A stretch of 64,000 bases of DNA from Dendronephthya gigantea (lineage: Eukaryota), in NCBI RefSeq assembly GCF_004324835.1, contig NW_021163015.1:3016323-3080322 (forward strand), in the 5' to 3' direction. Shown here in pieces: positions 18,001-60,634 of the stretch. The notes beneath the pieces were generated by a model. The model did not search any database. It was not told where the DNA came from and worked only from the letters and a program-made list of their open reading frames with translations. Within the stretch, counting starts at the first letter, position 1, and each line of letters starts with the position of its first letter. The position numbers and the translations under genes were made by a program.

Positions 18001-18369
18001 ATAATCATGTACTCAGTCACGGATCGAACATCATTCCTAGAATCCAGACGTCTTGGAAGCTTTCTGCGAGAGAATAATTCTGGGAATTTCGAGATGGCAC
18101 TTGTCGGAAACAAAACTGATTTAGAACATGCCAGAGAAATCATGGAAAGCGAAGGAACTTCACTTTCGGAGGAATTAGAATGCAAATTCTATGAAATATC
18201 TGTGGCAAAAAACTTCTTCGATGTTGAGTACATGATGAATGATGCGGTGAAAGGATTCACAAAAGCGTCAGAGTGTAGATCAAGTAGAACTTCATTATTG
18301 AAAGTGAAGGAAAATTTATCGCGGAACAAGTCTTTTAGATCGTTCAAAAGAAGAATGTCGATTTCGTAA
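15025..18369 (+). CDS. Ras-like small GTPase, RERG/RASL11/RASL12 subfamily (paralog B), 4 coding exons with the same intron positions and phases as paralog A, no CAAX motif
   Basis: Exons 15025-15109 (MMKTKKRSSSTTKHVNVIVLGQDGVGKS), 17529-17582 ([18 protein letters not shown]), 17661-17734 (EDSYNHCLEYEGENVSLTITDTSGL, G3 motif is DTSGL), 17953-18369 (KSEKELEEYLRIGDLYIIMYSVTDRTSFLESRRLGSFL...ALVGNKTDLEHAREIMESEG...FYEISVAKNFF...KRRMSIS*). Intron phases are identical to paralog A, which fits a tandem duplication. Confidence 0.8.
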
Positions 18370-18861: not shown

Positions 18862-19569
18862 TTATTTTTTATCGACTCTTTTTACAGCTTTGTATATGTA
18901 AATATCGACATTTTCGTCGTAGTGTACTTTTGAAATCTCGAATTTCTCATTCAGAAGTCCAAGAAAGTTTCTGTCTCTCTTATATCTGATTTTACAGGAT
19001 AGTAACACTATAGTCCTGATATCACTTAACTCAGTGATCGTTTGAAGTAGCTGTGGAAATGTGTCTTCAATGTATACAATATCAGCACCAAGGATGTAAT
19101 CAAATGGGGGTTTAAACGGCGAGACATCTTGTCCCCATTCCAACTCACGGACATCAACAGAAGATGAGTTCAGATTTTTAATATTTCTCTTGACATTATC
19201 ATGAGCTAAGTCCAGAGCCATCCGTCTGTCTGTTATGGTGACTTGTGCTCCAAGGTAACCTGCAACAATCCCAACCAAACCAGTACCTGTACAACAAAAG
19301 GATATCAGGATTAGGATTAAAAGATTAGGATTTATAGATTCATGTGATCCAGTACCTGCTCCAAGCTCAATGACTCTCTTCCCAGTTAAATCCACCATTG
19401 TCTCTAAGTACTTTACTAAAACAAGGGCGGCGTCCCATACAACAGCTGCTACACCATTCGTCTCCCAATCTTGGCTAATATTCACTGTATGACCTGCAAA
19501 CGTGAACTCTCTTGAATCTGTTTGAAAAATTGTAAATAACTTGGGAGGTTCGTAAACTACCAATTCCAT
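18862..19569 (-). CDS. METTL21A: Protein-lysine methyltransferase METTL21A-like (seven-beta-strand methyltransferase), 2 coding exons with an in-frame 69-nt intron at 19287-19355
   Basis: Translation [56 protein letters not shown]...[43 protein letters not shown]...[79 protein letters not shown] aligns end-to-end with human METTL21A as I recall it ([32 protein letters not shown]...ILGADIIYLEETF...[26 protein letters not shown]). The intron (GTACTG...TTGTACAG) splits motif I, GAGTG|LVG. An in-frame ATG 90 nt upstream (19659) would prepend the hydrophobic peptide MLSIVLNKLLFVIAISAMMSCGEKSSSKNN. Confidence 0.85.
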   Translation of the reverse strand: [235 protein letters not shown]

Positions 19570-20186
19570 ATTATTTTTTGACGATGATTTTTCCCCACAG
19601 CTCATCATGGCACTAATAGCAATCACAAATAGAAGCTTATTCAGTACTATAGACAACATTAAATCATTTGTCTTGACTCAAAACTAATTGTAAACGTGTC
19701 CTATTTTTAAACCGCTCCTCGGATGGCGGCCATCTTTGTTTTAAAATATGGTTTATAGATTTTGTAAGTACTTCATGTAAATGGAGAATAGGAATGAGGA
19801 AAATGAATTTATAAACAACATTAGTAAGAAAGTCTGTAAGATTCCTTTAAAACTATCACAAAAAGGTTTAAGAGTTTCTTCACGTGAAGGGAATAAATCT
19901 ATTTGGTTAAATGTGAATTGTCATTTTCACTTTCTTTTTTCCCCTCTGTAATTTTCTTAACATGACTGAAATGTGTGCATTAAATATGGTCAGTGGTTGC
20001 GAACCTGCAACACTTCATTTAATGCTCGCCACAAAAAACGTGTCCAAACTCTAAAGTTCTAAAGTACAGTTTCAATTTGCTGTGTTTCTTGTGGTGGTAA
20101 ATTGTTCAGAAATTAAAGCAGATTCAAACGATTTGTGTGTTATATTAGAAAGGGAAAAGGCTCGAGTATCTCAAGGAGCAGTATAA
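19570..20186. promoter_or_regulatory. Putative bidirectional promoter, about 617 bp, between the divergent METTL21A-like (minus strand) and GPAA1 (plus strand) start codons
   Basis: The two genes are head-to-head. The interval has no ORFs and contains a CpG-containing stretch (CCGCTCCTCGGATGGCGGCC). This is inferred from gene arrangement only. Confidence 0.4.
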
Positions 20187-28820: not shown

Positions 28821-31800
28821 ATGGAGAAAGTTGTACGAATTAGTCCATATTGTTATGTTCATATTCAAGATTTGGTAAGAAAGAATTGAATATCTGCATA
28901 AACAGAATATAATTTTAATTAGTTTTGGAGAAAAATTGTGGTGTTTGAGCACACAGTACATTAGAAGTCCATCTTTTATATATATTTTATGATGTTTACC
29001 AATCCTAGCATTAGTTGGTTCTCATGAAATGCTCATATTAAAAAAGTCTATAGATGCAATCATTAAGGCAATGCTGAGGCAAATCTGTTGTCAATTCCTT
29101 TTATATTATGTAGACAAGTAATATCACAGTCCTTGAAGTTGGACCAAGGACAATAATTCTTCAAGATAATCATAGACTTATTAAAGGACCATTACCATTT
29201 GTTGTCATTCCTCCTGGTCATTACTGTGAAATCAAAGATCCTGTCAAGTAAATGCATTAATAATAATGCTACAAAATTTGTGAAGCAGAGTGAGAGATAT
29301 ATCACATACCAGCAACTAAACATTTAGGTGTATATGTCGTTCATTTTCTTTTCATCTTAATGATATAGCATTTCCGTCCTTTAGGAAACCATGTTCTCCA
29401 GGACAGGAACATGATTTAAAGCATGGTTATGTTGAGATTCGTTTTTACGGGGTAAAGCACATGATGAAAAATTCCTGTTTGTTTATCATATGATTTATCT
29501 GACATTTTCCATTCACAGGAACCATTTCCACTTTATCCAGGAGAGTGTTTGGTTGGAGCAAGAAATGATGGTATGCGTCCAAATCATGTTATTAAATAAA
29601 ATCTTATTTAATCTTTTTCAACTTGTTTCATTTCTCAATGTTAACTAATGGTAGATTTCAAGGCTGCTGTCAAAAAGTTGCCATTTGTTCCCGAGCACAA
29701 AGCCATCAAACTTAAAGCAAATGTGGATTGTGATGTGAATGGTATTGAAAGAAAAGCTGGTGAAATGTGGCAAATTGAAGGACCAACGACCTACATACCT
29801 TCACCTGATGTTGTATGTAACCTACAATTAATGTCAAGATCAGTGAGAGCCAACTATGAGGCAAACTAATGAGTGTGGCATGGCCGTCCCTTACAACCGG
29901 ATTAGTTGAGATTGCAAGAGATTGCTGGTCTTTTTTAAGCTCTCAAGGCCATCGGATGCCCCCCATCCTCCTGTTCAGCTCTGCTCTCTCTGGCCTTGAT
30001 TAGTGTTCATTGTAATATCACTTCCCTTTTCATTTCTGTAAATACAAGATTGCCATATGTAGATAATGACTTCACATGCAGATAAAACTGAATGAATCTG
30101 TCCAGAATGCCTAAAATGGTACTTTCTGTTGCAGAAAACTATGGGTTTTCGTGATGCAATAGTCATAGGATATGGAGAAGCAATTCGCTTAAAGGCAAAG
30201 CAGGATTTAGTTGATAAAAGTAACAGGTATAAAAAAGAGATTCTTTGAGATAATTTAGTTGAGAGAAATACTAAAACTGCTTTGAAAACCTGCAATAGGA
30301 AGAGAGTTACTGGAGAGGAGTGGTTGGTCAGGAAGATTGGAGCCTATTTACCAGGTGTTTATGAGGAAGTAAGAGCGAAGTGATGGAAGTATTTTGCTGA
30401 ATTTAGAAGCATATGTTATAGTAAAAACGTCCTAAAATTTAGGTAGTCACAGTCGAAAGTGCTTACACTTTGAGGCATGATTCTGGGCTACATCTCAAGG
30501 CAACGAAAAACTGTGTTGATGCATTAGGCAAGAAAAGGTGAACGGCTCTTTTTGCTGCGTTTTTTATACACAGAAACTAGTTTTTCTATATTACGCTTAT
30601 TATGGTAAGCGTAAAAAGGCTGCATCTATCATTGATCGGGTCATATTGTTTAGGAGTATTGGTCAAGAGTGGTTGGTTACTGTAGACGACAGTGAGACAT
30701 ACATTCCCGAAGTTGGTGAAGTACGTAATGATATATATCAGCAGCTAATCTCCCTAATCCCTCCCTAATCCCTCACTTAACCAGGATTTACTAAGCTTAG
30801 GATTATCGTAATCGTAAAGGCTGTTGCCTATATTTGCGCTTCCACAAGTGTAATCCAATTTGAGAGGATTTTTTCGCGTTGATGCAAATCTGTAAATAAA
30901 TACGCAAATACGTCTATCCTGGAGGCTTTTTTTTTCGCTGTGTTTTCTTAGGAAGCAGTAGGTGGTGTCCGAAAGACAGTCTTAAGTAAGAATCAGTACT
31001 GTGTTGTTCTGGATCCTGTCGATAAAAATGGCGTGAATCAGCTCGGGTTGCGCCAGCTTCGTGTCGGAGTCTCGAGCTTTTTCTTACACCCTGGTGAGGT
31101 TCTTGAAGCTGGTATTCAGGAAGCTTATGTACTAAGTGATGATGAAGCTCTAGTACTCTCAGCTTTGGATTATTATGAAGATGATACTTCAGGTAATATA
31201 TATTTATAATTAATTGTCGATAGATTGCGGTCAAGACATCTTGAAGATACAATATATCCCATATGATTCATTGGAAGTGTAGAACTGTGAATTTTTCACT
31301 TTATTAAAAAAATTTTTGCCACAGAATGAATGATACAAAACATGTTGTCATTATATATAATTATGTCTGAAAAAATCTTTATAATTGAGTCAAAAATTTA
31401 CAATGTCAACAGTGGTCGTTTAGAGAACAAAGCTAGAGAAAATCTCACATTTTTATTTGCCATCAAATGCAAAACTATCGTGAGTAATGAAAAGAATTAT
31501 CTGGGCTTGTTTACTTTGAAAACTACTGGTAGACCGTCATCGCCTTGTTCACCGGTGAGAACCTCTAACACAGTGACGTCAAATGATGTCATAGCCTTGC
31601 CTGACCGCCTGCCATGCAGGCTAATGATGTCAATGTGGATTTTTTAACATCTTTTAGAAACCAAGAAAATTAGCAGAACGCCCGGAGATCGATGGATGAT
31701 TCATGGACCACGTGACTATATCCCACCAATCGAAGTCAAGGTTGAAACAAAAAGGTTTCGTTGATTTCGTCAACCCCTAGACATCGTATAATACGTACCA

Positions 31801-34800
31801 CAACAATCCTACAAAGTTATTTATATTCTTTTTTTTCTCTAGGAAAGCGATTGCTTTGTCAGAAAACAATGGCATTTATGTGCAAAATGTTCATACTGGC
31901 GAGGTTAGTTGCCCGACATTATGTGATACTGTGAATGGTTACAGAAAATAGTGGAAAAAATTAGCTCTCTTTATAAATGAATTTCCCAGGTGCGTGCGAT
32001 CCTTGGACCCCAGTCGTATTTACTAAAGGAATACGAAGAATTATGGTCTAAAGATCTTTCCACAGAGGTTGAAAAACTGTTGAGGTACTTATGCGGTCAT
32101 TATGAAAACTGTGGTAACGAATAATTTTTGTAACAAATTAATGTTTTTTTAGTCTAGGTGGTGGCTATGGTGATGGTACTGATATCAGAAAATTGGCGTA
32201 TTTTGAGTCAGCGATCAATCCTGATTATACCGATGGAAAAGTAAGAATAGTTGAACCTTTTTTGAAGCAGCATCCGTTAATATCGACAGCTCTTTTTAAC
32301 GAAAAGGAATCTTTTTGGGCGGCTACGATTTTTAGCCTAAAGACTAAAGTATTTATTCTGTTTCCTGCAGCGAGATAAGATGAAAGTTGTTACGTATAAA
32401 TGTCCAAAAGGAACCGCGGTTCAGGTCAGTTCAAACATTCATAATTTCATAATGATTATCATGCACAGGCTTGTGTTTCGCGCTGGAAAAATTCCTCCGG
32501 TTTGCTTATCAGTAGATGTAATATTTAAAAAACAGCTGGTGTTTCCTTCAAAGGTATACAACTATAAAGAAAACACCGCGCGGGTGATCTTTGGACCTGA
32601 TATGGTGAGTCTTTGTATCGTACAAACCAAATATACCAGACGTATTTGGTTAAAATATGATTATGCTAGTTTTTAATTCCCTTCAATAGTTCAAAGAAAC
32701 CTCGGGTCCCTTGTCTAAAAATGTTAACTGAGCACTTCTAAGAAATGCGTATATTGATAGCTATCTGTGATATTTTTCTCGTAATTTCAGGTTATTCTAG
32801 GACCACATGAGAATTTTAATGTCCTCAGTTTAAGTGGTGGGTGATTCATTCAGAATGAAAAAAGTATGACTAAAAATGGCAGAATCGTTTTCTAACTTCT
32901 CTTGTATTTTCAGCTGGAAAACCAAAGAAAGAAGGAGCATTGAAAAGCATATTGTTGATGCTTGGTCCTGATTTTATAACCGATATTATAGAGGTTAGTT
33001 CATCAACAAACTCCTCAGCGATCAGTTGGGTGTATTTCACCGTCAAACGAGTTCTCAAGTGTTGTGTATACGACCAGTGAATCTTTTGAAGATATGGATT
33101 ATACTGACTGCCATCAAGCGATTACGGCCACTTCTGTTTTAGAAACGGTTAATGCTATCGAGTTCAATATTCTGGAAAATTATAGATCTGTATTCCTGCC
33201 TAAGGTCTTTTCTTAAATCTCTGTATAGGTAGAGACGTCTGATCATGCGAGACTCCGGATAAAACTTGGTATGAACAATCATTTTGATGTAGATATGGAC
33301 GACCCGGAGTCCAGAAAGGCTATCTTCTCGATATCCGATTTTATTGGATATGCCTGCAGGAATGTTGGTACGGAAATCGCTAAAACTATTCACAATTTTT
33401 TTTCGTAAACATGAACATCTATTGAGGTTCTCCTTCTGTCTCTTTTAACATGCACCTTTGGCTTTGACACACAGCTTTATGATATGCTGATACAATTTTC
33501 ACTTTCACGGTTTAACCATACAGCCAGTCGAATCAGAGGCATGGTAGCCCAGACTCCATTTGACCAGTTTCATAGATATTCAAACAGTATCATACGAAAA
33601 GCTACCTTCGGTGTTGACAGCGATGGAGAAGTGAAGAAGATGTTAAAATTTGATGCAAATCAACTCGTATGTTTTTTACACATGTATTTCAAGCTAATCG
33701 TGAACTGACATCCAAGTTGAAATGGTATCGTACCAAATTTCACCCTCACTTCGTGCTTTTATGTTCTAGGTTATAACACAAATTGATGTCCAAAGCATCG
33801 AACCGGTGGATGAAAATATGAAAAATAGTTTAATGAAATCCGTGCAGATGGCCATCGAAATATCTACGATGTAAGTATCGTCTTTTGTATTGAATGCAGT
33901 TGGAGAAAAACTTTAGTCTTTACACCAGCGAGAGAAATTTAAAAATCCAGATTTCTATTACCGTTTTCAATGCTGTTATAAGGTGGTTCATTCATTCTAG
34001 GTCGACTGAAAAAGCAGCTGATCACGAAGCCAAACGCCAGGAACAAATCGCGAGAGGTTTGTTGGAAAGACAGAAGCTTTTGAATAAGAAAGAAGCGGAG
34101 GAGTCAAGGAAAACCTTGGCTGAGTTGAGAGCCATTACAGCCGCTGTTGAGTCTACCGGTCAGAGCAAAGCAGAAGCGCAGGTGAGTGTTTAATAAAGAC
34201 GAAGGAAGCCTGAATTGAGGCGTCCAATTTTTAAAAGGTGGCATTTATTGTATAACACAAACGACCGTCTTAAACTTTTAGGCAAAGGCAGACAAACTTC
34301 TGATACAAGGAGAGTCAGCCATTGAAGGTAGGGTAGTTGACTGTACCGAAATATACCACGATCGTTCCTGAACCGATTAGTCTTTTTGACGGATGTGATC
34401 TTACTGTATAAGTTTAAACGAGGCGTGGCTATTGGTTCATAGTCCGATAAAGATGTAGATATAGCTCTACTTTGTCAGGTCACATATGTCAGGAGCAGGA
34501 TTCGGTCCCTGAAATCTACGAAAGTTTCAAGCTTTTTTTTTAAATAAACGTACCAAACTTGTGTTTTAGTTGCCAAACTGAAAGCTGAAGCATCAGCGAT
34601 TGAATTTAAAGCAGAGTGTGATACGAAACAGAAGGTATTATACTTTGGGATGTCCTTGTTTGAATTGTATTCAGTTCACATGGTTTACTGGCCCTCTATG
34701 GCAAGATCTTCAGTCATTTCTGATTTGTATTGTAGAAACATGATAGAGAGATAGAATTTCAAAAAGAAAGAGATGAGATGGAAATTAGGAAGCAAGAATC

Positions 34801-35219
34801 ATTGGCAGCTATTGAAGTAAGTTATATCAAGATGCATTCTTTTCATTATGTTTCTGTTAGTGTCAATTACTCTGTTCCATATTCCACTTCAACACATGTT
34901 GTCTCTAAATGTTTCCAGTCCTCAAAGGTTGCATCAATCATCCAGGCGATAGGCCAGAAGACACTGGCGGAGATTGCTTCTGAGGGTCCTGAATGTCAGG
35001 TAGGTTAGGCTAAAAGTTAGGCCAAAAGTTAGGCCAAATAGACGTTAAAACAAAGAAAAAATTGGAAATTTTCCAGTTTGCTGTTATACCATGAATTACA
35101 ACAAACATGGTATTTTTTAGGCTCAGATGTTAAAAAGTCTTGGTATCCAGAATGTCTTAATCACAGATGGTTCAACTCCAATAAACATGTTGTCAAGACC
35201 TGATCAATGTCTGTATTGA
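28821..35219 (+). CDS. MVP: Major vault protein with N-terminal MVP repeats, SPFH-like shoulder and C-terminal coiled-coil cap helix, about 24 coding exons
   Basis: Translated exons are collinear with human MVP as I recall it: 28821-28874 [18 protein letters not shown] (human EFIIRIPPYHYIHVLDQ); 29114-29247 [44 protein letters not shown]; 29385-29451; 29519-29570 EPFPLYPGE; 29655-29812; 30135-30226; 30299-30368 [10 protein letters not shown]...; 30443-30537; 30654-30720 [22 protein letters not shown]; 30952-31192 ...[52 protein letters not shown]; later exons ...[11 protein letters not shown] / [23 protein letters not shown] / ..[14 protein letters not shown] / [17 protein letters not shown] / [15 protein letters not shown] / ...[27 protein letters not shown] / [30 protein letters not shown] / [32 protein letters not shown] / ...[39 protein letters not shown] / ... 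/ [32 protein letters not shown] (stop at 35217-35219). Coordinates are listed only for the first 10 exons. Confidence 0.88.
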
Positions 35220-37648
35220 TGCATCCAAATATAATCATATTATTCCAAGTAAGTACTGTAATTTAGAAGCTGACATTGCAAATTAAGCCAATGTGAGCTA
35301 TCGCTATTGAACACGAGAATTTGTTTCCAAATGGAAAATAGGGCAAAATGATCAGGTAAAAAGGTATTTTATTTCAACAAGTTCACCATTACTAATTCAA
35401 CCCATTGAACTTTAAAACATTTACTACATAAGCCAGATTTATTAAGAAGCATAAAAAACTACGGACCAACTGGGATAAAACCTTTAATACAATTGTACAA
35501 CATTGTCAATTGTGTCAAAATATACTAATTATGAAGAGTCTCAAGTCCTAGAAAAAACTGAAGCAATTTGGCCACACTAAAGTAAATAAATAGGCATTTA
35601 TCATGTTTTTGAAGAAAGTCTAGTTTTGTCAGGTTTGGATATTTTAGAATGAAATCAGTTTTTTCCATTAAGATGACTCTTCAACTGGTTATATAAATTA
35701 GCTTTCACACAGTATATCATAAATAATGTTGAAATCATGCAAACAAAAACATTGGGAATACTAAAACTAAATACAAGGTAAAAACGACTAACTAATGTTT
35801 ATCTAAAGCTAGGCACAGAGTGTTAACACATGCATGTTTTCATGTTTTTCACTTGGCAGCATTTAAGTAGCTGCCATGGTTGAACATTGATGTACGGACC
35901 ATGATGGTCAACAGAGGAAATAACCATCTTATAACGTGCAAAAAAGTTTGTAACAAGCATGTGTAAACTAAACTCTGATGTCAGTAGTTTTATGTATAAA
36001 TTGAGCAGTTAACATAAACTTATGATCAACTGCTCTCGTCATCATCTACAAGATCCTGTTCTGCTACAAACCATATTCATTTAGACATATATACCAACAA
36101 TCATCTAATTATATATTACTAATTTGTCGAAATACATTTTACATTGTTGAAGCACTAGTCCATGATCTGTATAAAATATAAATATGGTTTGCCCTCAGAA
36201 GTAGAAAAGATTTTTTTGGTCGTTGTAATAAATAGATGTTTTTTATCACTCAGTTTGTTTGTGCTTTTTCACTACAGATAATGAAACTTGAACATTTTAA
36301 TTCAATGTTTTGAGTATGCCAAAAATGTGAATTGCTTCAAAGCATTTTCAAAATATGATTGATACTTTTAGATACAAATGCTATAAATCTGTGGTGCATT
36401 TGTATAAAATACTTAAATTGGTGTTTTGATTAGCAGTGAAAATTCTTACATGAAATTCTGCCACACGTTAAACCACAGTCCTCAGTATTTAAAATACTGA
36501 ATAGTTTTAATAGACAACAGCTATTTCTCGTCATTCTTTAACTTATTTTTCGCAGTGAATATATATGGGCATTTATATGTTAATTACTACCACATGAAAA
36601 CAGGTCATCTATATATTTTGCACAATAGAGTATTCAGACAATAATTAAATCAAATCAACGGTAAGCCGATACTGTATGGTGGAAGTATTTATTTGTAGCC
36701 TGACCATGCCTTTCATCAAGAGCCTTTGCTTGACCAGACATGAATGAATTAATCAACAGAGTTTACATGAACAATTTACCTCAGACCGCCTAATAAATTA
36801 TACTTTGAGAGTTTTTGAGTATATCAGTGCCAATTTACTATGGTCAAATTAAAACCTGAATACTCATAGCCATCAAAAGATCAATAATTAGATTTAATGT
36901 TTAACGTTTGAACTTATCATTGACCATACTTGGAAAAACAAGTTTGAACAAATCTTTTAAAAAACAAACCATTTTACACCATCTCATGACTACCATCGTT
37001 AGACCAGACATAATCGTTATGGTACCATGATTCATGGTGATTTTACTTGGTAATTCAATTTCGGAATAATAGTTTTAAGTTCCGCAAGGAAAATGAACTG
37101 TAATATACTGTCATAAACATTTTGAAATGTAATGACAATAAAACAATCTAGAATCAACTATTGACCTCCAGGTTGATTAAATTATTTCTGAAGTATTCAA
37201 GGAATTTCCTCCTAAGACAAATGAACAAAGAAGTAATCTGGCTCCACAGTGGAAGTTATGTAAACTATGACAAAATAAGCTATCTTGGAACTTAAAATAG
37301 CCGTCTATTTGTGAAAGAATTAACAAAACTGTGTTTTTGTCTAACGCGTAGCAACATTTCATTATTGTATTTGCCCGCAGGTGTCGGCACAGACAAAATA
37401 TCTTTTTTAAATTAAAACGGAAACAGAACTATGCCAAACAAAGGTGTCAAAAGCTCGCAAATATTTCCGATATATTGCTATCGGTCGTCTTGCCTATTCA
37501 AACAATATAAAACAAAAACCTATACTAAAATCTGTTCAACGCAACATGTACACGTTACAATAAATCTGTGTAAGCACCGTAGAGGGAAATTTTTTAAAAT
37601 CGTCAAATCAGTATTACCAGCACTTGCATACCTTTCGTGTTTTGGCTA

Positions 37649-38833
37649 CTATATTCTGTACGCCTTCCCAATGTTAATATTAGTATCGTTCTGCTCAACA
37701 GTTTTCATCATATTTGTTTCAACAATGGGTGAAACACGTTCGTTATTGTTCGATTCATTACTTTTGATAACCGAAGTTTGAACATGCGAGCTGCCATAAG
37801 TCGGAGAGAGTTTTGCATGAGGAGGGGAAGCAGGCATTTCGACTGGCTCTCGTTTAATATTGATCACCCCGTGTTCTGCACCGTTTTCAATCGGCACTGT
37901 CTGTGCGATGGGTTGCGTTACAACATGAACCACTTCGGAGCCGTTTGCAGTTACAGGAGCCTGTTGAACCACTGCAGTCTGGCCGTTTGTCGTGTTGGGC
38001 CTAATAATTACACTCCCGCCTTGTACAAACACATAAGGAGTATTTAAATTGTTTTTTCCAGAGCCCGGGACTTGTGTAATGATCGTCGAGGTAGCTTGAT
38101 TTGTATGTTTCAGCACGGTGACATTAGAATATTGTGTTTCTTGCCAAGGGCTAGGTAGGCCACCTTGCGAGATGTTAGTGTATTGACCATAAGGACGTTT
38201 CATTCCTCGTTGGCGACGTTTTGGTTTGTATTTATAGCCGGGATTATCTCGCTTGTGTTGCTTGTCCAGTTTGGCTGCCTCTTCGACATAGGGCTGTTTC
38301 TTATCAGCGGGTAACATGCGCCATAATTTTCCTAGCATTTTACTCAACTCTGCGTTATGAACGTGAGGGTATTGTTCAGCTAGTTGTCTTCTCATTGATT
38401 GGGCCCAGATCATAAAACTATTCATCGGCCTTTTAATATGCCCTTCTTTGCCGCTTTCTAACGAAAATTGTTTGGCCAAAGCCTCGTGGCGACTCTGGTT
38501 GTCTTTCGCCAACTCCGCTCGGGCGATTGCCTCCATATCGAACGTGGCCGGCCATTTTGTCTTACTTTCGTCTTCTGAAAGAGGTTTTGCTTCGTTGCCG
38601 ATATCGTTAATGTGTTCTCCTTTACCGCTTTCGTGTGCGACGCTCGCTGCTTGTCCGACGCCATTGCTGTGTTTGGCAACATCGGGTCGCGCGATCGCAT
38701 CCATGTCTATGTTCGCTTGCCACACTTTGTTTTCGCCGTCGGTTGCTGAAAGAGGATTGCCTTCTTTCCCGACGTTGTCCGGTCCAATTCCCAGTGTAGA
38801 AATCGTTGGTTTTACATCGCATTCAGTGGCCAT
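37649..38833 (-). CDS. Sox-family HMG-box transcription factor with a SoxE-like HMG domain, encoded in a single uninterrupted exon of 394 aa
   Basis: HMG box at about 38213-38440: [75 protein letters not shown]. Compare SOX9 as I recall it: [75 protein letters not shown]. The shared WAQ..RR.LA.QYPH.HNAELSK.LGKLWR signature is SoxE-type. No recognisable SoxE dimerisation domain precedes the box. Instead the N-terminus carries an internal duplication of roughly 50 aa ([21 protein letters not shown]...SGKGEHI vs [22 protein letters not shown]...SGKEGHI). The ORF-track start at 38854 is TTG, so the first ATG, at 38833, is used. Confidence 0.8.
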
Positions 38834-39207
38834 GATGCTGTCTCTAGCTCGCAATAAACAAAGCGATGACTATTGTTCCAAAGTAAAAGCTATTGTTTTC
38901 GTGTCACGTGGCAAAAGTGTCCCTTTAGGGCTTTTGTCAAACGATACGATCTGTATTTTTAATCAAGTGCTTCCTTTTCTTCTGTTGTTACCGCGTTTAG
39001 CCCAATAAACGTTTCCCTAAATAACCTTCCCCCTCATGGCAAGAAGGCCCAGTTCAGATAGACAGCAAGCAGTTGAAAGCAGCGGAAATAATGGCATTTG
39101 AACCTGAATAGCTCTGAAATAATTAATGCAGGGAACAAAAGCTTGAAAGAGACGCCGAAATCTATTGTCAGTAAGAAAAGACAATATCCTATCGCTAACA
39201 TTAGCGT

Positions 39208-39215
39208 GTTTAATT
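39208..39215. repeat. Target-site duplication GTTTAATT, 5' copy
   Basis: Identical 8-mer immediately outside both transposon termini (…GTGTTTAATT|CAGTGGCG…CGCCACTG|GTTTAATTTCC…). Confidence 0.85.
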
Positions 39216-39486
39216 CAGTGGCGTAGCTACCGGTCCTGCTCGTCCTGCCCAGCAGGACTAAAAATTTCCCCAAAATTTTGAAAAAACCACTCCAAAAAAA
39301 TTTATGAAATATTTTTGAAGCCTAAGCCTTATAAATTCCGCAATTATATTTTTCGATTCGTTTCTAGCAACAGTTACCACTCGGAAGCTCGCGCCCGCAA
39401 ATATAATCGATCCCACGCATTGATGCTTCAGGCCTAATAACATATATGACATATATATGATATATATATATACAGATCAATGGCTC

Positions 39487-39634
39487 ACTCCTGCTATTTT
39501 GCCAAGGCAGGAGCTGCTATAATATTCTATAGAAGAAAATACTCAATTCTGATTGGATAAATGGCCTCTTACTCACTCATAATTGGCTGGTTACAACTCC
39601 GCACTCCTGCTATCTCGACAAGGCAGGAGCTGCA
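39487..39634. repeat. Two copies of a 32-34-nt hairpin motif, (G)CACTCCTGCTAT(T/C)T(T/C)G(C/A)CAAGGCAGGAGCTGC, at 39487-39518 and 39599-39634 in the transposon 5' subterminal region. A related palindrome GGTCCTGCTCGTCCTGCCCAGCAGGAC lies at 39236-39262
   Basis: Read directly from the sequence. Each unit is a 7-bp stem (CTCCTGC/GCAGGAG) around a 13-14-nt loop, and all share a CCTGC...GCAGG core. The GGTCCTGC motif recurs inverted near the 3' terminus (GAGCAGGACC at 43221-43230). Confidence 0.7.
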
Positions 39635-39727
39635 TATTGTATTGCCTTTTCTTGCGAGGTTTCCGCGTGAGTACACACACTTGAGCGTAGTTTGCATAGT
39701 TATTGTCTTTGAGCGAGTGTTTTTGTA

Positions 39728-41889
39728 ATGGCTTCAGCAAGCGTGACGAATCTAGCTTCAACTGAAGCTGATATCATAAATTCTTTGTTAAGAAAATCAT
39801 TTTCTGTTCGAGCAACCGCGGAACAAAATGTTATTGTTAAGCAAAGGCCAATGCCGAATTTGAGTATTAGTGCGAGAGGGAGATCTTTTCAAATGGCTTG
39901 GTATGAAAAGAAGGATTGGCTTTGTGGCAGCACAGAGTTAAAGAGATTATTTTGCTGGCCGTGTCTTTTGTTTTGCCCTGGAAAGTCGCCGACTTGGAGC
40001 AAGAATGGTTATAGCGACATGCATGGCTTCCTCTCTGATTGCAAAAAGCATGAAAAGGCGAAGTCACACATGGCTGCTTTCAAGACCTGGAAGACGTACG
40101 GTTCCGGTGCTCGAGTGGATTCTCTTATCTCCCAAGCAAGAAGAGACGAGATACAACGCCACAATGAGGAGGTAAGGCAAAACAGAGAAATTTTAAAAAC
40201 CATAACCGAGGCTGTTTTGTATTTATCCAAACAGGAGTTGGCGTTTAGAGGCCATGATGAATCTGAAGATAGCTTGAACCGCGGTAATTACAGGGAGTTA
40301 CTCGAGTCCTATGCTAAGTTAGATTCTGTATTTGAACGACGATTGCATGGCAGACTAGCTGAATCTGGTCAGGGTGGAGATTCACGTTTCACTGGGGTCT
40401 CTCCTGAAATACAAAATGATTTAATCTGTTGCCTTGATTCCATTATTGAAGATACTATTTTTAAGGAGATTAACGAGTGTACCTTCATCAGTGTGCAGGT
40501 TGATGAAACTTCTGATGTCTCAACTAAGGAACAGGTAAGCATGATAGTCCGTATGGATAAAGGTTGTGAGATAGTAGAAAGACAATTGGGATTTGGAGAT
40601 GTCAGCACAAAGAGAGATGCTGCTGCCATATCCCAGTTTGTGAAGGATAAGCTTAGTCCCCATTCCAACATCAAGGATAAATTAGTGATGCAAACCTATG
40701 ATGGTGCTGCTGTTATGTCTGGTCATGTTAGTGGTGTCCAGGTTCGAGTGCGTCAAGAATATCCTTTTGCATACTTTGTTCATTGTGCAGCTCACAGATT
40801 AAATCTAGTTTTGTGTCAGTCTGCCTCATCTATAGCCCCTGTTAAAGTTTTCTTTGTTGATATAGGAGCATTTTGTACTTTTACTAGTAATGCCCCTCAA
40901 AGAAAAGCCTTTCTTAATTCTCATCAAATCGAGTTCCCCAGCCCTGGTGATACTAGGTGGTACTATCGATCTCGTGTGATAAGTGTCTTGCATAGAAATT
41001 ACCAGAAACTTCATGACATTTTTCTTGGAGAAGTGGATGAGCCTGGGAGCTGGGATGGAGAATCATTGGGAAAGATACATGGTTTGCTACATAATATTAG
41101 TAGTTTTTGTTTTGCTTTTTGGTCTGTGTTTTTCAACAGATTTTCCAACAATCATCAATCCTATATGAAATTCTGCAAGGCCAACAAACTGACTTTAACT
41201 ATGGTATGGTAAGAATTCAGCGTTTTGTAACCTTTGTTTCTTCTCTTCGTAGTGATGATAAATTTTCTGAATTATACCAAGAAGCAGTAGATATATTGGG
41301 CCCACCAGAAAGCAGACTTGAGAAAAGACACAACCATAAGCAAATTTATTTTGAGATTATCGACTCCATTGTTAGTATGATGAATGAGAGGTTTCAGGAT
41401 ATGAAACAATATGCATTTTTAGATCTTGTCAATCCAAAAAAATTTGCATCTTGGGGTGGGGTGGTACCACCTGAGAAAATTAATTTACTAAAAGAGATGT
41501 ATGGGCCCCTTTATGATATCTCCATGCTTGAGAGCCAACTTTCTTTCATTTACAGGGATCAGGATTTTCATAAAGACACATGTAATGAATTACTAACCTA
41601 TATTTTTAAGTTTAATCTCCAATCTAGTATTCCTGAAGCTGTCAAATTAATGAAAATGAATGTTGTCTTGTCAGTAACTAGTGCTTCTGTTGAAAGGTCA
41701 TTTTCCTGCTTGAAAAGGGTAAAGACCTATTTGAGAAATAGAATGAGTCAAGGGCGCCTTAGTTCTCTTTGTAGGATTTCAATCCATAGAGACATTCTAA
41801 AAGAAAAAGAAGATGCCAATGTGCTACATAGTGAAGTTGTGGAGAAGTTTGTGGAGAAGCCAAGGAGACTTGCCTTTCTTTACAAATAG
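39728..41889 (+). CDS. hAT transposase with N-terminal TTF-type (ZMYM1-like) zinc finger, central RNase-H-like/DUF4371 region and C-terminal hAT dimerisation domain. 705 aa, 2 exons with a 44-nt intron at 41209-41252
   Basis: N-terminus RSFQMAWYEKKDWLCGSTELKRLFCWPCLLF (zf-TTF pattern F..W.....WL........LFC..C.LF). Central ...FISVQVDETSDVS...LVMQTYDGAAVMSGHVSGVQVRVRQEYPFAYFVHCAAHRLNLVL (typical hAT catalytic region). C-terminus ...SVTSASVERSFSCLKRVKTYLRNRMSQGRLSSLCRISIHRD (hAT C-terminal dimerisation motif). The ORF track shows two overlapping ORFs (39728-41212 and 41107-41889). A canonical GTAAGA...TCTTCGTAG intron joins them in frame (...LTLTMV-C-DDKFSELYQEAV...), so the reading frame looks intact and there are no internal stops. 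Confidence 0.78.
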
Positions 41890-41939
41890 TAGACAGGTTA
41901 AGTATAAGAGACATTAGCTGTTGAATGTAAGTATAACTA

Positions 41940-42830
41940 TTTCATTACTAGTTCATCCCTGTTAAATGGGTTCAATTTTTATAATTCATTCATCATAAGC
42001 AGTCCTTTGTGCACTCTTGCACCTTATTGTAATAGCCTGTTATATAAAATATTAAAACTTAAAAAAATTATTTGTATATCATTTAATTGGTCCAAGGGGA
42101 GATATTCACTGCTGGTGTGGTGACCCCATGGGCCATCTGTTCACACTGTATTGAATAGTTACTATTCATTAATTGCTTATGAGTTATGAGCAGTTTTTTG
42201 TGCACTCTTGCACCTTTTCACTTCATGTAATATATGTGTTAAAGAAATATTAAAATCATAAAAATATATTCTTCTAATTATAATAATAATAAAAAATCTT
42301 TACAGAGGAAAGCTTCCATCACCAATAGTGCTTTTCAGGAAGGTCCTCTAAATTGGTTCTAGGGGAGATATCCACAAGTGTGGTGACCCCAATATATAAA
42401 TAATGGGCCATCCCTGTTCATATTGAATTGAATATTTACTTTAAATTCATGTATGAGCAGTCCTTTGTGCACTCTTGCACCTTTTCTTGTAACCTATGTG
42501 TTTAAGAAAGTATTAAAAACATATAAAATCTTATATATTTTTTCTCTTAATGGGGAGATACCCACACTTAAGGTGTGGTGACCCCAATAAATATTCATTC
42601 ATCATGTATGAGTGGTCTTTTGTGCACCCTTGCATAGTTGCACCTTTTCACTGCAATATACATATGTGTAATGTGTTTAATAGTTCTTAGTGACTTCTTA
42701 CTTCTTTTGCATTTACCATTCTGTTCATACTGATACTGTATTAGATATTATCTATATTCTTACTTTTCATCATGTATGAGCAGTCACTAGTGCATTGCGC
42801 ACTATTGTACGTTTCATTGTTTTCCGTTTC
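41940..42830. repeat. Degenerate tandem array (about 5 units of ~150-270 bp) inside the transposon, 3' of the transposase gene
   Basis: Recurrent blocks ATGAGCAGTCCTTTGTGCACTCTTGCACCTT (near 41995, 42185, 42455, 42607, 42777) alternating with GGGGAGATA(T/C)(T/C)CAC...GGTGTGGTGACCCCA(T/A) (near 42096, 42361, 42553). AT-rich spacers contain ...TATTAAAA...ATAAAA... Confidence 0.7.
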
Positions 42831-43257
42831 TTCATTCTCGTTAAATGATATTGAAAACAAGTGACATCGTCTTTGTCAATCGTGAGCCAATTTGCGCTAA
42901 GTGTGTGTACTTGCAATTTGAAAATAAAACGAGGAGTAATGGGCCATGGCATATTTAGTTGCAGCAATACAGAAATGCAATTATGCAACTCTTTTACTTT
43001 CTGGCTATGATGAGCGTTGTCTATTTGACTTCTACAGTGCAAAAGCTTTATTCTCTGAGCCATTTATGGTCTATCAGAGTTGCAGGGTTAGGGCAAATTT
43101 TTTGTTGATACTGCCCCCAGAACGCCGCAAATGCTGTTTCCAGGCTTCCAGATATCAAAAATTTTCTGGGGGAGCATGCCCCCAGACCCCCCTGGGATGC
43201 TCGCACCTTCGGTGCTCGATGAGCAGGACCATCACCGAGGTGCTGGCTACGCCACTG

Positions 43258-43265
43258 GTTTAATT
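43258..43265. repeat. Target-site duplication GTTTAATT, 3' copy
   Basis: See the 5' copy. Confidence 0.85.
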
Positions 43266-46200
43266 TCCGTCTTGTTCAAATAGCGGCCTGAACGTTGGGA
43301 AAATTTCGCAAGAAAATGCTTGGAATAGAACAAAACAAAAGGTTTAGTGTTTCGCGCTGTTCTCTTGCTGAGAAATCGCAGTCTTTTTCTAATCCCTGTA
43401 ATTCTATAAATATTTTTCGAGAGAATATAAGAGAATACTTAGCATTTCAATCGTGTCTTTGTGTGGGCGATTTGAATTAGTAACAGACGAGGATTAAGAA
43501 GTTTTTCTTCGAAGAATATAATGAAATATTATTAAATATACTAACAAAGTCAAAGACAAATTATTGACTGTAGAACCATAATTAATTCCTGGTAAGCGAG
43601 ATCTCGAGAAGAGGTGCTTGAGTTTACAAGAGTACTACAGATTCATTGAATTCTTACTCGTAAAAACAAAACAGTTTTTTATGCCATCAGGCGTCTATGG
43701 TTTGGTCATTAGCAAAAGGAGACAATATGTTGTCCCGAAAACAAAGACATTTGCAATTAAATGTGTCGCAAACAGCGTCAAATTCCGTTTAATTATTTAT
43801 CACTTCTGTCGGGAAAGGTTGGCTATATTTATCAACAATACACTCCAAGACCATAGCTTTTGTTTTGGCTGATTTGCCAACATGAGCAAGCGCATGATTT
43901 GCCTTGTAATTGTAATTGTATGGTGTAATCGGTGTAATTTGGATTCGGCAGAGATTGCCATTCGCCTATCCCCTTTGTCCTTGAACGTATTATTTTACCA
44001 ATATCTTTTGCGTTTGATCATTTCACAAAGGTCATTCAAATTGAATTGAATTAAAGTGAAATAAATATCAAAGAAAATAGGTTATGAGTTAGTAAGTTAC
44101 CAGTTACAATCAGTTACTACTTTTTGACCCAGGATTTCCAGAACCAAGACGTCGAGTTTAGATCTCGGGCAACGAAGGACTAAGTTCTACAGGAAGTAAA
44201 GGCTTGGTCAATTGAATTTGATAATTGATACATGTACTAGTCAAACTTTCGATGGTAACGGTTTAATTATCGTCCAGTTATCAATGGGTTGAATCTTTAC
44301 TACTTCCCACTACAATCGAAGCTCCTAGGATTGACTTTTCTAAGGGGTTTTTGCGAAAATTCGCTTCACGTAAACCTTGCGTAGAAAGCAGGGTGAAGCA
44401 CTAGGCTTAGGGGCATGTTTCCTTCTAATTTTGAAAGTGTTAAGAACAGATTCTGCTTACTAGAATTTTTGATACCTAGGCTAACACAATTTCCGTGAAA
44501 GATTATTCTGCATTGACTCATTTCAGACAGTGTTTGTGACAAGACAACAACATTTCTGTCGGCTGATGTATTAATAAACTGCCTTTAAACATAAAATTCT
44601 TTAATTTCATTGATTATAGGGCATCCTTTGCCATCCTCTCCCCTGCCGGCAAAAGAGAAAAGGGGCCACCATCGGGGCGATAGAAGCAGGGGCTGCTTCT
44701 TCAACAAATTTTGGTATCCCTGGACATGGGCATCGTCCGTGTCTTTGATCATACCTGCATGCAAATCTCTCTCTTTGCATTTTGTATGAAAATGAAGCCG
44801 TAAAACATATTGCAGGTTTATTCATTTAATTTCAACAAATGAATCCTAGTTTGTTGTCATCTTTCCTAGTGTTTCCAACAGGTGTTTTGCAGGTAACATG
44901 GCGGAGACTTCAGAAACACTACGCGTATTTACAATTTCTGCTTTATATTTTGATTTCAAACAATGATTCACAGCAAATCCAATCGCTTTATGCAGTGGTG
45001 TGTATTGCTGTCATTATTGTCCCTCATGAGCGCCTACTGTTCTGTTGGTGCCACAAGAAATCGTCAAGATTTCAACCGACAAAATGAGATGCGGTTTTTT
45101 GACCGTTCAACAAAACAAATTATTTATTGGCTACAAAAGGACCCGCCTGACGGTAGGACTAACGGGGGAGTGTTTTATATAAAAAAATAAGACTGGTGTA
45201 ACTGTAAACATATATATATATACTAGAAATCCGTCCAACCTTTAAGGGTCTATGGTCCAGGTAAATGTTATCATAACTGGTTGAATAGTTGTGATATAGT
45301 CATGGATTACATGGTCAAACTCCCTGATGGTGGAGTTGATTTCAGTAGATAACTTTATAACGTTTCTCGGCCAGCTGTGATATTTGTGCTAATTTTGGTG
45401 AATATCCTATCTACATGCATGATGGGTAGGTAGATTGTTATTTTGCAATGGTGTGTGTGATCTGTGATTCTTGTCTAAGCATGCTTGCATGCAGATATGA
45501 ATTTAAAAGTATACGTTCCCTTCAATTGATGTACGTTAATTGTCTTCATTAATCAAATAGAAATTTTTAAAGAGGTAATTGGAAACTGGAACAACAACAC
45601 AGTTAATGTTAAAAGCAAGGTAATAATTGGTCTACCACCAAACTTTTTATGTAAGTCTCGATACTGAGCCTCTCTGAACACATTCTTCGCCTCCACTGCA
45701 TTCTCTGACTGCTTTCGTCTTCTTTCTAGATTGTCTTATATGAGTGGCCGTTCATTGCGTTCTCTGGATTCCTCTTTCTCTCCGTTCTCACTACATCCAT
45801 CACTGGCTTCGTCATCCTTTTTTACAAGAAAATTATTAAAGCTAAACCAGACAAGAATTCTCTCGAAACCTCGATCGTGGCTAGCTGCACATCTGGCAAT
45901 CGTGGCTACGTCTTCCTACTTGCTTTCTTGTCCTGTTTCTTAATGTATGTCATTTCATAACGATGCATATAGAAAGAAAAAGAAACCATGCCACCTCTAA
46001 TCCCTACTAGTTTGATATGCAATTACTGCAGCATAGTGCAGCCACGGTATTACACCTTTAGAGCTTTTTTCGACCATTTCAAAGCTATCCTTTCTTATCT
46101 TCCTAGAATTACAGACCTTTGTTTGCTCATATCAAACAACCATCTTTCAGAAGGCCTGCCCCACGCCAGAAGGACGTTGATTAATTCCATTGATAGCCTG

Positions 46201-46291
46201 CAAGATTTTCAAAATAACACAATACAAGTTAGTCGGCTTAAAATATGCAGATTTCATTTTGTACATTACATATGTCGTTTTTCTATTGTAG

Positions 46292-49200
46292 GAACTAGAT
46301 CATATCTTACGAGATAACTTTGACAGCACAATAAGCCGGTCGCTGAATAGGTTTCGAGGTATGTTTTTTGGCCTATGCGGTTGAAATGTATACACCACAG
46401 AAATTTCCTTTATAAGTGAAAGAAATAACAGTACATCATCCTTGTAGTAGCTCTTATATTCCGCAATTCTATAATGCATAGCTTTAATTTGCTTCAAACG
46501 AACTCGGTCTTTCAAATAAACGTATGTCTCGCTTGCAGTTCTTGCTGATTGTAGTCCTGGAGGATTGGATTCGTTGCTAAAGAAGAAGAGAGTCAACTTT
46601 GTTAAAGTTTCTGAACGCGCATCCTCTGGTATTTATTAAAATCTACTGATGAAATTTAATGAGCTCAAGCTTTTAAATATGTCTGGATGAACTTTGTTTT
46701 TTTTTAGATTTGCAACAGACAAGAGTCATTCTATCTCACATCAATATGACATTGGGTGAGTTGTATCGTCTCTCAAGTGGCCTGAGATCTGAGCTTGGGA
46801 AAATGAATCTTTATTTCAAAGAAGCTAAAAGACTCTGTTCTAGTTCTATGAAAATCATTAGCGGTGACGTCTGTAAGAAATTTGCCCGTGAAAAAGATGA
46901 TTTATTGCCTGGCTCCTCCCTTCAGGTATGTAAATGGCAAATACTTTGTTTCATTATGTTCTCAATTTTCGCCCTTTGTGTACAATGTTATAATAGGTTC
47001 CTAACTTTCTTGAAATAACTTCAATCATAATAACTTAAAACATAGTAAATACGCACGCTTCAGATCAGGCCTTGTTGATTAGTACAAAAGGAAATTGAAG
47101 TTCATTGAAAGAATTTCTTTGTCTAGGCGTCAAGGAATCTCTCAGAAACAACTTCAAGGCTTGATAAGTTTCTGAAGCATTTGAACTACTCCTCAGTCAA
47201 AAAGGTGCCTATCATCATTTGATATTATTATACACATGAACTGCAATACTGCATGACTTCCACCTGAACATGCGTCGTTATCTGGCGTTAAAAGACAACG
47301 CCATTGACGTTCACACCATCGCTAGTCTCTCGAGTGGATACCTCAATTTACACCATGAACAAGTGTCACCGCAAACTTGTTTTCTTGTTTTAGTCAGAGC
47401 ACAAAATGCTGTTCTTCGTGGGAGTATTTTTCCGTGTATTATACTAATATGTCTGCTCGTAATCGTTTGCAGGTACTTGAAACCCAGGAGGATGTTGAGC
47501 GTCAGTTATGCGAAGGAAGATCGGCCAAATTAAGAGGTTTGTATTACATGAGTACATAGCTGTTCATGCGTCTTGAAAGTGCCATCATATGTCGAAAAGC
47601 TTCCGTTTGTGGAAGGTTTAGACGGCGGTTCGCAAGCTTGGGCTAGAGCAAAGTGGGAGGTCCCCACTATTTGTCACAAAATTTCAGTCAATTCTATTTC
47701 AAAAGCTGGGAAGAGCTGGTCAGAACTACATAGGCTGACTTTTCCCGTCTTGTTCGAGCAAATGATCTCTGAATGCATACCATGGTAAAGAAGAAAATAA
47801 TGACACATTGGTTGCATTTTTGTAACTTTTATTACCGCCAATATGTGTCTAGTTGTTTACAGTCCTTGTGTCATAATATTCTAATGTTACATATAGTAAA
47901 ATTTACAGTGCCTTGGAAGTTTGAAACCTTAATCTCAGAAAAAATCGTTAGGAAAATACTAACTCTTGTATAGGCACATTTCATTGCCATGTTTTGTGAA
48001 ATATTGCATCACCTTGCTCAGTGGCTATTATAAATACCACTTTTGTAAAATCTTGCATTGCAAAACAAGAATTTGATCCCCAAGTGCGCGCTCCACCAAA
48101 CTGGAATTTTTTTGTCGTCAACATATCGTATGACCAAATTCCTGGAAATCTGGCTAGACCTGAATTAATTAGATTTACTCCATAATTTGATATGGTCCGA
48201 ATTTTTTGTGCGTCAGGCAATTTATATTCATCGTTCGACCCTTCTACCTGTGCCAAGGACTCGGGTTTTCAAAGCGGATCACTCAGACTGTCTGTCAACA
48301 CAAATAACGTAATAAAGTTAATATTATGGCTATTCTGTTGAACACCCAGTTCGTCTACCATGTCTTAGTTGGTTGTGAACAATTTTAATCTTATCTTGAA
48401 ATGAGATCGCAAATATCCATAAGTTCTGGGAGGTCTTCCAATTGGTCCACTTGAAGTTCGCGCTCCAAATAAGTCAACAAACCTTCATCGACTGGCTGTA
48501 AATTTTCAGTGACGTCAAGATTAGTTCCTGGTATATCTTTCATTTGTCCAGAAGTGCTTGGCGAAACATCACGTAGCGACGTTGGAAAGCTGCCCTGTCT
48601 CAATGACTGATAATTAACGGCATCAACATGTTTTTCAGACTTGCATAAACCATAAGCGTTGTTTTGAAGCTCTTCAAATGCACAGAAATCGTCATTATTG
48701 TCATACAATGAAGCACACGGTAACTCCGTGATGTTGTTTAGTTTCCTCGTCATTTCCGCAATGTCTTCGACCGTATTAAACGGGCAAAACAAATCCAAAA
48801 GTACGTCCGTTTCTTCTCGACAGAGTTTGCATCTTTTGCTCTCACACGTGTAAACGATGTAAGCTTCTTGATCATGCACAGTTTCTGAGTTGGTCGTTGA
48901 GCAAAGTTTGCAATTCAAATCTCTACATACAACCACGTTGCAGTCGCTGGACTGAAGCATTGTCGGTTGCAGAAGTTTCACTGAAATCTTTGTAAAACCC
49001 AACGCAGTAGACTCTGTTTTGCATGAAGTTCTGCACGATGATAGTGTGAACAGACGAGACAATGTCCCTTTCTTTTAAACGTGACTATTTACAATTCGAA
49101 GCAGTCCTTGGGGCAATGCGGTCTTCGAAATAGATTACACCGCTTTGCCTGCTCATTAAATCTGTCTGTCAATAAATGCAGTATTTTAAATTCCAGGATA

Positions 49201-60062: not shown

Positions 60063-60634
60063 TCAAGGTGTTTCCGACTTGTCATGTTCACTTTTGCTCA
60101 AAATTAAACTCTCATCCGATTCGGAACATGGTATCTTCATAAATTCCACTGGCTCTTTGCATTCGAACAACCTGCTGATCGACAGTAGGGCACTGGAGAC
60201 TATTGCCAGGCCAACGGTGATGTACACGAATGTCAACACTGTGAACAACACCGTGTGAAGTCCGTTATGCTTGCTTGTATCCGCTGGATGAAGTGGAACG
60301 AAGTCTCCGAAGCCGATCGTGGAGAGAGTGATAAAAGCAAAGTAGAAACCCTCGAAAAATGTCCATCCTTCATAGGCATGCGCAAACGCTGCCAAGGTTA
60401 ACAGTAACAGGGCCATGATGGCGAATACAATGAGTGTCGTCTTGAACTGAATGTTCACAGGCTCTTCTCTCCGTAGAAGTCGTTTTTCCACGCTCGTGAT
60501 CACCTCGGGTAATATCTCCGCCACCTTCTCGCCGATGGATTTTAGCATGAGCCCAGCTATTGGAATTCCTAACAACGCATAGACAATGCAGAATGTACGA
60601 CCCCAGGTGGTTATGGGTGTCATGTGACCGTAGC
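60063..60634 (-). CDS. Two-pore-domain potassium channel subunit (K2P/KCNK), paralog B. Only the 3' portion was found; the 5' exon encoding TM1-P1 lies beyond 60634 or outside the window
   Basis: Minus-strand exon after acceptor TTTTCAG|GCTACGG: (G)YGHMTPITTWGRTFCIVYALLGIPIAGLMLKSIGEKVAEIL...EGWTFFEGFYFAFITLSTIGFGDFVPLHPAD...TFVYITVGLAIVSSALLSIS...SETP*. It shares about 45% identity with paralog A exons 2+3, with the same YGH...P2 TIGFGD...LAIVSS architecture. It is tail-to-tail with paralog A, with stop codons 1.2 kb apart. Confidence 0.75.

Follow-up and report, generated by a model that had tools for sequence, protein, structure and literature searches.

The question that this locus raises is whether a Sox gene that looks out of place among the SoxE genes is a recent, altered offshoot of a canonical SoxE gene or a regular member of an older group. 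The gene lies on the reverse strand (37649..38833) of a 64,000-nucleotide stretch of contig NW_021163015.1 from the octocoral Dendronephthya gigantea, the whole of which is called the window here. An initial annotation, made from the letters alone, had described it as an intronless, structurally atypical SoxE-like gene that looked retrogene-derived or rapidly evolving. We find it very probable from sequence comparison that the gene is instead the octocoral ortholog of Nematostella NveSoxE2, related to SoxE without being a canonical SoxE, and that it codes for a functional single-exon Sox transcription factor, because of its placement in gene trees and because its similarity to NveSoxE2 extends beyond the HMG box. 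The SoxE2-type coding sequence is complete, as seen from the open reading frame (ORF) and its translation, and gives 394 amino acids and a stop codon. It is already annotated in RefSeq with an identical coding sequence: XP_028390812.1 ("transcription factor SOX-8-like [Dendronephthya gigantea]") equals the window protein with 100% identity over all 394 residues. As the RefSeq protein corresponds to the uninterrupted ORF, the gene has one coding exon, in agreement with the initial annotation. No identical copy of the protein was found among the indexed contigs.

Upstream exons coding for a dimerisation domain had been named as the finding that would speak against such a gene. The RefSeq model has no coding exon further upstream, and an in-frame TAG is present at 38872-38870, which is 13 codons 5′ of the Sox ATG. 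Also, the three octocoral loci compared are distinguished by frame-breaking indels of 4 and 9 nucleotides immediately 5′ of the ATG, while the protein start MAT(E)C is common to all three. It may be noted that an antisense ORF of 186 amino acids lies opposite to the Sox coding sequence (38448-39008, forward strand); nothing supports it, and most likely it merely reflects the codon composition of the sense strand.

For membership in the Sox family we asked for a Sox-type HMG box that has the RPMN(A/S)F motif and is identical to the SRY/SOX HMG domain at no less than about 50% of positions. The window protein belongs to the family, with an HMG box of the RPMN(A/S)F type and with SOX proteins as all of its top matches among solved structures. 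The box is its sole Pfam domain (HMG_box, residues 133-201, E=8e-24, 84 bits against a cutoff of 25), and together with a basic C-terminal tail it forms the DNA-binding domain (residues 133-209, 38207..38437, reverse strand). Against solved structures the box scores 117 bits with SOX9, followed by SOX17 (97), SOX18 (95), SOX4 (90), SOX5 (86) and SOX2 (83). The SoxE signature that was read initially (WAQ..RR.LA.QYPH.HNAELSK.LGKLW) is indeed there, as is RPMNSF, and the best structural match to SOX9 goes along with it. In an AlphaFold2 model built on a shallow alignment of 15 sequences, the three HMG helices (139-154, 160-173 and 176-196) are predicted with a predicted local distance difference test (pLDDT) score of 84-90; only these helices are confident, and the remainder of the protein was treated as disordered.

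Group E was resolved by Jager et al. 2011 (PMC3120710) as a pair of sister clades: the first is cnidarian-only (CheSox5, HmaSox5, NveSoxE2), and the second contains bilaterian SoxE, ctenophore genes, CheSox1, NveSoxE1 and AmiSoxE1. We added the window protein and representatives of the groups to their alignment and calculated neighbour joining trees of the HMG boxes with 1000 bootstraps, these being distance trees over no more than 78-80 columns. The octocoral sequences come out as a single group (99.6% of bootstraps), which joins NveSoxE2 and other hexacoral sequences at 93% (82% in the first, smaller tree) and, together with CheSox5, HmaSox5 and Aurelia-type sequences, makes up a cnidarian-only clade at 94% (93% in the first tree). 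Grouping of this clade with SoxF received 8% in the smaller data set. A clade of sponge, cnidarian SoxE1 and bilaterian SoxE genes excludes the window gene with 84% in the smaller tree and was not recovered with the published set. The label SoxE-like stands in so far as SoxE is the nearest group by the scores against solved structures. The HMG box phylogeny, which had been proposed as a check, does not uphold the idea of an atypical or derived canonical SoxE: the window HMG box is not nested inside the canonical clade and falls in the cnidarian-only sister clade (93-94%).

Similarity outside the box leads to the same relatives. A database search returned 14 full-length relatives of 46-95% identity, with one cluster holding Xenia sp. 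XP_046851006.1. The next-best matches are hexacoral, namely Exaiptasia "Sox-8", Nematostella "SOX-10" and an Oculina protein, followed by a group of about 390 amino acids which contains Aurelia gene models and a group including the D. gigantea "Sox-17-alpha-B-like" protein. By comparison with the supplementary alignment of PMC3120710, the Nematostella "SOX-10" protein (P0047) is NveSoxE2, as judged by its N-terminus and HMG sequence, and P0059 is CheSox5. BLASTP against NveSoxE2 extends past the HMG box up to residue 284 of the window protein (49% identity over 181 residues), while similarity to canonical coral SoxE1 ends at the HMG box. A gap-free alignment of HMG boxes shows the diagnostic residues of cnidarian SoxE2, including AA(R/K)LD, in the window protein. 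With NveSoxE2 and its hexacoral orthologs (Exaiptasia "Sox-8" and Oculina LOC144642443) it shares about 80% HMG identity, the AA(K/R)LDK residues and, after the box, KRxYGQ and GGS(V/M)IIRP. With CheSox5 of Clytia and HmaSox5 of Hydra the HMG identity is about 70%, with AARLD shared and the flanks being different (SDEALLRLT motif). The N-termini of octocoral, hexacoral and medusozoan members cannot be aligned; the hexacoral one (GEVKIEKVEQ..SDQNFNWK) is unrelated to that of octocorals. A tblastn search for microsynteny with the Ras-family gene beside NveSoxE2 gave no match.

Canonical SoxE proteins (human SOX8/9/10, AmSoxE1 and NveSoxE1) belong to the nearest Sox group that contains bilaterian genes and have about 62% HMG identity to the window protein, with the WAQ signature in common. 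They differ from it by having Sox_N, the SoxE dimerisation domain with the pattern ..VL.GYDW.L.P.PVR.., right before the HMG box, by having the EF(D/E)QYL motif, and by reading YKYQP, SKT and AERLR where the window protein has YKYKP, SKM and AAKLD. EF(D/E)QYL is the canonical C-terminal activation motif of SoxE, given as motif III by Shinzato 2008 and Jager et al. 2011 (PMC3120710); AmSoxE1 carries the motif, and not even DQYL was found in the window protein.

Some points weigh against the ortholog reading or narrow it. The sister relationship of SoxE2 to canonical SoxE is weakly supported, with 26% in the published set and 68% in the smaller one. In the tree, the branch of the octocoral HMG box is longer than those of the hexacoral boxes, so that the octocoral stem may have seen some change of function. 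Also, the monomeric mode of DNA binding that we consider below is read from a missing domain. As regards the branch itself, we observed that the octocoral SoxE2 HMG boxes have a long stem relative to the hexacoral NveSoxE2 type and yet are about 96% identical to each other, which suggests that the octocoral ancestor went through a burst of change and that constraint has been tight since then.

We next consider the features that make the gene appear atypical. The dimerisation domain is absent, as had been stated: the window protein has no Pfam match to Sox_N at E<=0.1, and hhalign gives a probability of 0.07% for such a domain. The Pfam scans of four members, including the window protein, show that NveSoxE2, CheSox5 and a scyphozoan member have no Sox_N either. 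As a positive control, coral SoxE1 P0107 matches Sox_N with E=7e-10, and AmSoxE1 has VLDGYDWSLIPLPVRVNG directly before its RPMNAF HMG box. The serine of RPMNSF, which had been called unusual, turns out to be widespread among cnidarian Sox genes. It is found in every SoxE2 member and in octocoral SoxF-like proteins, and ten sequences in the published cnidarian alignment have it too, among them SoxB-type and unclassified genes.

The single exon is likewise shared. From the gene lengths, NveSoxE2 (450 amino acids in a 1353-bp gene) and a scyphozoan jellyfish SoxE2 (384 amino acids in 1155 bp) have single-exon coding sequences. The same holds for the canonical SoxE1 of Montipora foliosa, which does have Sox_N (409 amino acids in 1230 bp). 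An Acropora-like SoxE1 holds the dimerisation domain and the whole HMG box within one ORF, and a further hexacoral SoxE1 (L009) has an HMG box without an intron. An intron inside the HMG box is a trait of bilaterian SoxE genes such as SOX9 and Sox100B. Its absence is not diagnostic in Cnidaria, because hexacoral SoxE1 genes also lack it, and the initial assumption that metazoan SoxE genes contain introns does not hold for the uninterrupted Montipora and Acropora-like coding sequences. A single-exon coding sequence is common to anthozoan SoxE1 and to all the SoxE2 genes checked. Taken with the above, the single exon, the missing dimerisation domain and the serine of RPMNSF are inherited traits of an old cnidarian subfamily and not products of recent retroposition or decay.

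Introns are nevertheless found among relatives. Medusozoan SoxE1 ORFs appear to start inside the dimerisation region (at MPVR.. or ..GYDW), and at several SoxE loci from metagenomes the match ends with the residue that follows ..GKLW, where the HMG-box intron classically lies. Together with the uninterrupted coding sequence in all SoxE2 members checked, the medusozoan starts and the breaks within the HMG box at some non-cnidarian SoxE loci could be explained by an ancient retroposition that founded SoxE2, or intronless cnidarian SoxE in general, before the anthozoan-medusozoan split, with the window gene as a distant descendant. We regard this as improbable. Hexacoral SoxE1 is intronless too, so that the data fit a loss of introns, or their primary absence, just as well; also, no hallmarks of retroposition are visible, and none could survive for so long. 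As a separate observation, intron positions in canonical SoxE vary by lineage (P0258-P0264, P0287; L010-L013, L038, L067, L075). In one locus (L004, 5088-6400; compare L005, 3001-4230) the frame changes between its two ORFs; the name of this contig gives a coverage of 1.97x, and the change is probably an assembly error.

A far younger event, in which the gene is a lineage-specific retrogene or rapidly evolving paralog of an intron-containing canonical SoxE that has lost its dimerisation domain, was closer to the initial description. Such an origin would fit the single exon and the lack of Sox_N in the window gene, the splitting of neighbouring genes in the window into many short exons and the breaks after ..GKLW in some of the metagenome loci. 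To weigh it, non-synonymous (dN) and synonymous (dS) divergence were calculated by the method of Nei-Gojobori for the pairs with a close relative found in a metagenome of Tara Pacific (L002, dS 0.29) and with a more distant octocoral (L001, dS about 1.05). For the whole gene dN/dS is 0.087 with the former and 0.084 with the latter. The HMG box has dN=0 (dS 0.41) against the close relative, and nearly the whole box is invariant in the 15-sequence octocoral alignment. Every segment of the gene is under purifying selection, and selection of this strength speaks against both a recent retrogene and a paralog in fast evolution; the description as rapidly evolving is thus contradicted. Full-length orthologs of the same architecture occur in octocorals, hexacorals, scyphozoans and hydrozoans, which is against a retrogene origin as a lineage-specific event. 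The relatives that would have to serve as parents (Montipora and Acropora-like SoxE1) are single-exon themselves, the nearest relatives are intronless, and the flanks of the window gene are syntenic and conserved in two other octocorals. A lineage-specific origin of this kind is therefore highly improbable, and the gene is better read as an old SoxE2.

It may also be asked if the gene is the only SoxE-type gene of the octocoral, having taken over the canonical roles after a loss of SoxE1. We looked for an octocoral canonical SoxE1 among the matches listed by a protein search with AmSoxE1, a protein search with the scyphozoan P0131 and a JGI metagenome scan, and found none, while hexacoral, scyphozoan and hydrozoan SoxE1 were returned by these searches. 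However, they cover the best 80-120 matches, which are dominated by other taxa, and are weak evidence of absence. Also, Nematostella and Clytia each retain both paralogs (Jager et al. 2011, PMC3120710). A takeover of the canonical roles is hence unlikely; if octocorals do lack canonical SoxE1, the window gene would be their only SoxE-type factor.

One of the differences between the octocoral protein and NveSoxE2 is a unit before the HMG box, which is duplicated in the Dendronephthya lineage. Residues 19-74 align with residues 76-132 with a BLOSUM62 local score of 91, a value reached by none of 2000 shuffles (23 +/- 4.5, maximum 45). The tandem duplication reported initially is thus real, though its unit is about 57 residues long and not about 50, and the two copies are about 35% identical. 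At the DNA level, a seed-based search found direct repeats in the duplicated region 171-174 nucleotides apart. The repeated blocks noted before at a spacing of about 170 nucleotides were recovered too, the degenerate 17-mer GCGATYGCMTCCATRTC occurring exactly twice (38523 and 38691, 168 nucleotides apart) where 0 are expected. Tandem Repeats Finder detected no repeat in the DNA since the duplication is too diverged.

On dividing the unit into its copies, copy 1 (residues 19-75, 38609..38779, reverse strand), delimited by self-alignment, has a dN/dS of 0.27-0.31, and copy 2 (residues 76-132, 38438..38608, reverse strand), which lies directly before the HMG box, has 0.10-0.15. Both copies are present in 10 orthologs, including the window gene, its close relative and the Xenia-type sequence, while 5 orthologs of 350-370 amino acids (P0010-P0014) have only the copy next to the HMG box. 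Copy 2, being common to the single-copy orthologs, is the ancestral one. The ten two-copy and five one-copy orthologs therefore indicate a duplication confined to one octocoral clade, which includes Dendronephthya and Xenia, and not shared by the remaining octocoral orthologs. As the low identity of the copies shows, this duplication is old; both copies have been retained.

The unit was tried as a diverged SoxE dimerisation domain and rejected, the hhalign probability given above having been obtained against a profile of the dimerisation region from 14 canonical SoxE proteins. AlphaFold2 places low-confidence helices at residues 100-108 and 113-125 in copy 2. On account of this helical propensity and of the position, which is where canonical SoxE has its dimerisation domain, the unit could have evolved independently into a module for interaction or dimerisation, and its duplication could have altered pairing on DNA, with both copies under purifying selection; we consider this a long shot. 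With the duplication one can ask by what means SoxE-type factors that have no dimerisation domain interact.

The C-terminal half (residues 210-394, 37652..38206, reverse strand) is predicted to be disordered, with pLDDT below 50, and has a dN/dS of 0.09. Across 15 octocoral orthologs it carries the short invariant motifs GMKRPYxQY, YVxVQxGSVIIRP and a terminal GYRV/AYRI; one octocoral C-terminal motif is not seen in NveSoxE2. Its composition had been given as rich in Q, T and V, of which V and T stand, but Q makes up just 7% and N is abundant in its place.

Sox HMG boxes bind the minor groove at sites of the (A/T)(A/T)CAA(A/T)G type and bend the DNA, and SOX8/9/10 typically do so as a cooperative homodimer through the dimerisation domain. 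By established Sox biology the window protein would bind and bend DNA at sites of this type. Having no dimerisation domain, it would probably bind as a monomer or with heterologous partners and not as a homodimer of the SOX9 type, and contact with cofactors is the probable task of the conserved C-terminal motifs. A role in differentiating stinging cells is a candidate for the octocoral gene, because its hydrozoan ortholog CheSox5 is expressed in the medusa's nematogenic ectoderm (Jager et al. 2011, PMC3120710).

The 5′ flank of the gene is conserved and also interrupted. A non-coding block directly upstream of the ATG (38834..39215, reverse strand; 5′ untranslated region (UTR) and/or promoter) has a mean identity of 91% over the three octocoral loci, and these 382 bp are more conserved than synonymous sites, which are near saturation against L001. 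The block contains a CACGTG E-box and three conserved ACAATAG motifs (38870, 38890 and 39162), all on the strand of the gene. Over the whole window ACAATAG is not enriched (13 found, 11.3 expected). The motifs resemble Sox sites, and auto- or cross-regulation by Sox factors through them is speculation. Conserved blocks without codon-phase bias and with indels were also seen downstream (35447-35732, 35928-36243 and 36590-36676) and, on the far side of the transposon, upstream (43258-45284, against L002). The blocks in 35447-36676 and 43258-45284 are candidates for putative cis-regulatory or UTR sequence of the Sox gene.

The transposon that had been noticed beside the gene could be delimited as a DNA transposon of the hAT superfamily, 4,042 bp in length (39216..43257, forward strand), which lies 382 bp upstream of the Sox ATG. 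It has a perfect 8-bp target-site duplication GTTTAATT (39208-39215 and 43258-43265) that occurs once at the empty sites of L001 and L002. The 12-bp terminal inverted repeat CAGTGGCGTAGC is found within the window only at the two element ends, and conservation of the flank picks up again beyond the far side of the element. Of its ORFs, 39728-41212 carries DUF4371 (68 bits) and 41107-41889 carries Dimer_Tnp_hAT (26.7 bits, cutoff 21.4). The 8-bp duplication, inverted repeats starting with CAG, DUF4371 and the hAT C-terminal dimerisation domain are shared with hAT transposons that have DUF4371-type transposases (ZMYM1- and ZBED-like). The element differs from these in its transposase, which is split over the two overlapping frames by either a frameshift or a short intron. 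The insertion into the conserved 5′ flank is private to the Dendronephthya lineage, and the perfect target-site duplication suggests that it is recent. Lying in so strongly conserved a flank, it may affect the regulation of the Sox gene.

Among the neighbouring sequences, at least 17 short gap-free blocks of 55-250 bp with 76-88% identity to L001 lie at 29646-35255. Their mismatches fall in one codon phase, and we therefore rejected them (29.6-35.3 kb) as regulatory elements in favour of exons of a multi-exon neighbour gene downstream of Sox. Upstream of Sox there are conserved coding blocks on the same strand (46105-46233, 47115-47206 and ORF 48391-49062). The protein of this ORF is 60% identical to L001 1060-1629 and has neither a Pfam match nor a dimerisation-domain motif; the ORF is absent from the RefSeq Sox model and is presumably a separate gene. 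Farther away are a Ras-family GTPase exon (17815-18369, forward strand), which has no match to the Ras/Arf gene beside NveSoxE2 in Nematostella, an ORF for a Methyltransf_16 lysine methyltransferase (18862-19659, reverse strand) and an exon of a two-pore-type ion channel (Ion_trans_2, 60063-60623, reverse strand). An Rfam scan of the window found no RNA family.

Only two details of this locus are new, the lineage-specific N-terminal duplication and the recent insertion of the hAT element, the remainder being ordinary for cnidarian SoxE2. A gene that looks aberrant when compared with vertebrate or fly SoxE is thus a normal member of an old, intronless and cnidarian-only SoxE2 branch without a dimerisation domain. 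Octocoral members thereby join a subgroup that had been described in Nematostella, Clytia and Hydra, and the single-exon coding sequence in both anthozoan SoxE1 and SoxE2 bears on the use of Sox intron positions as group characters.

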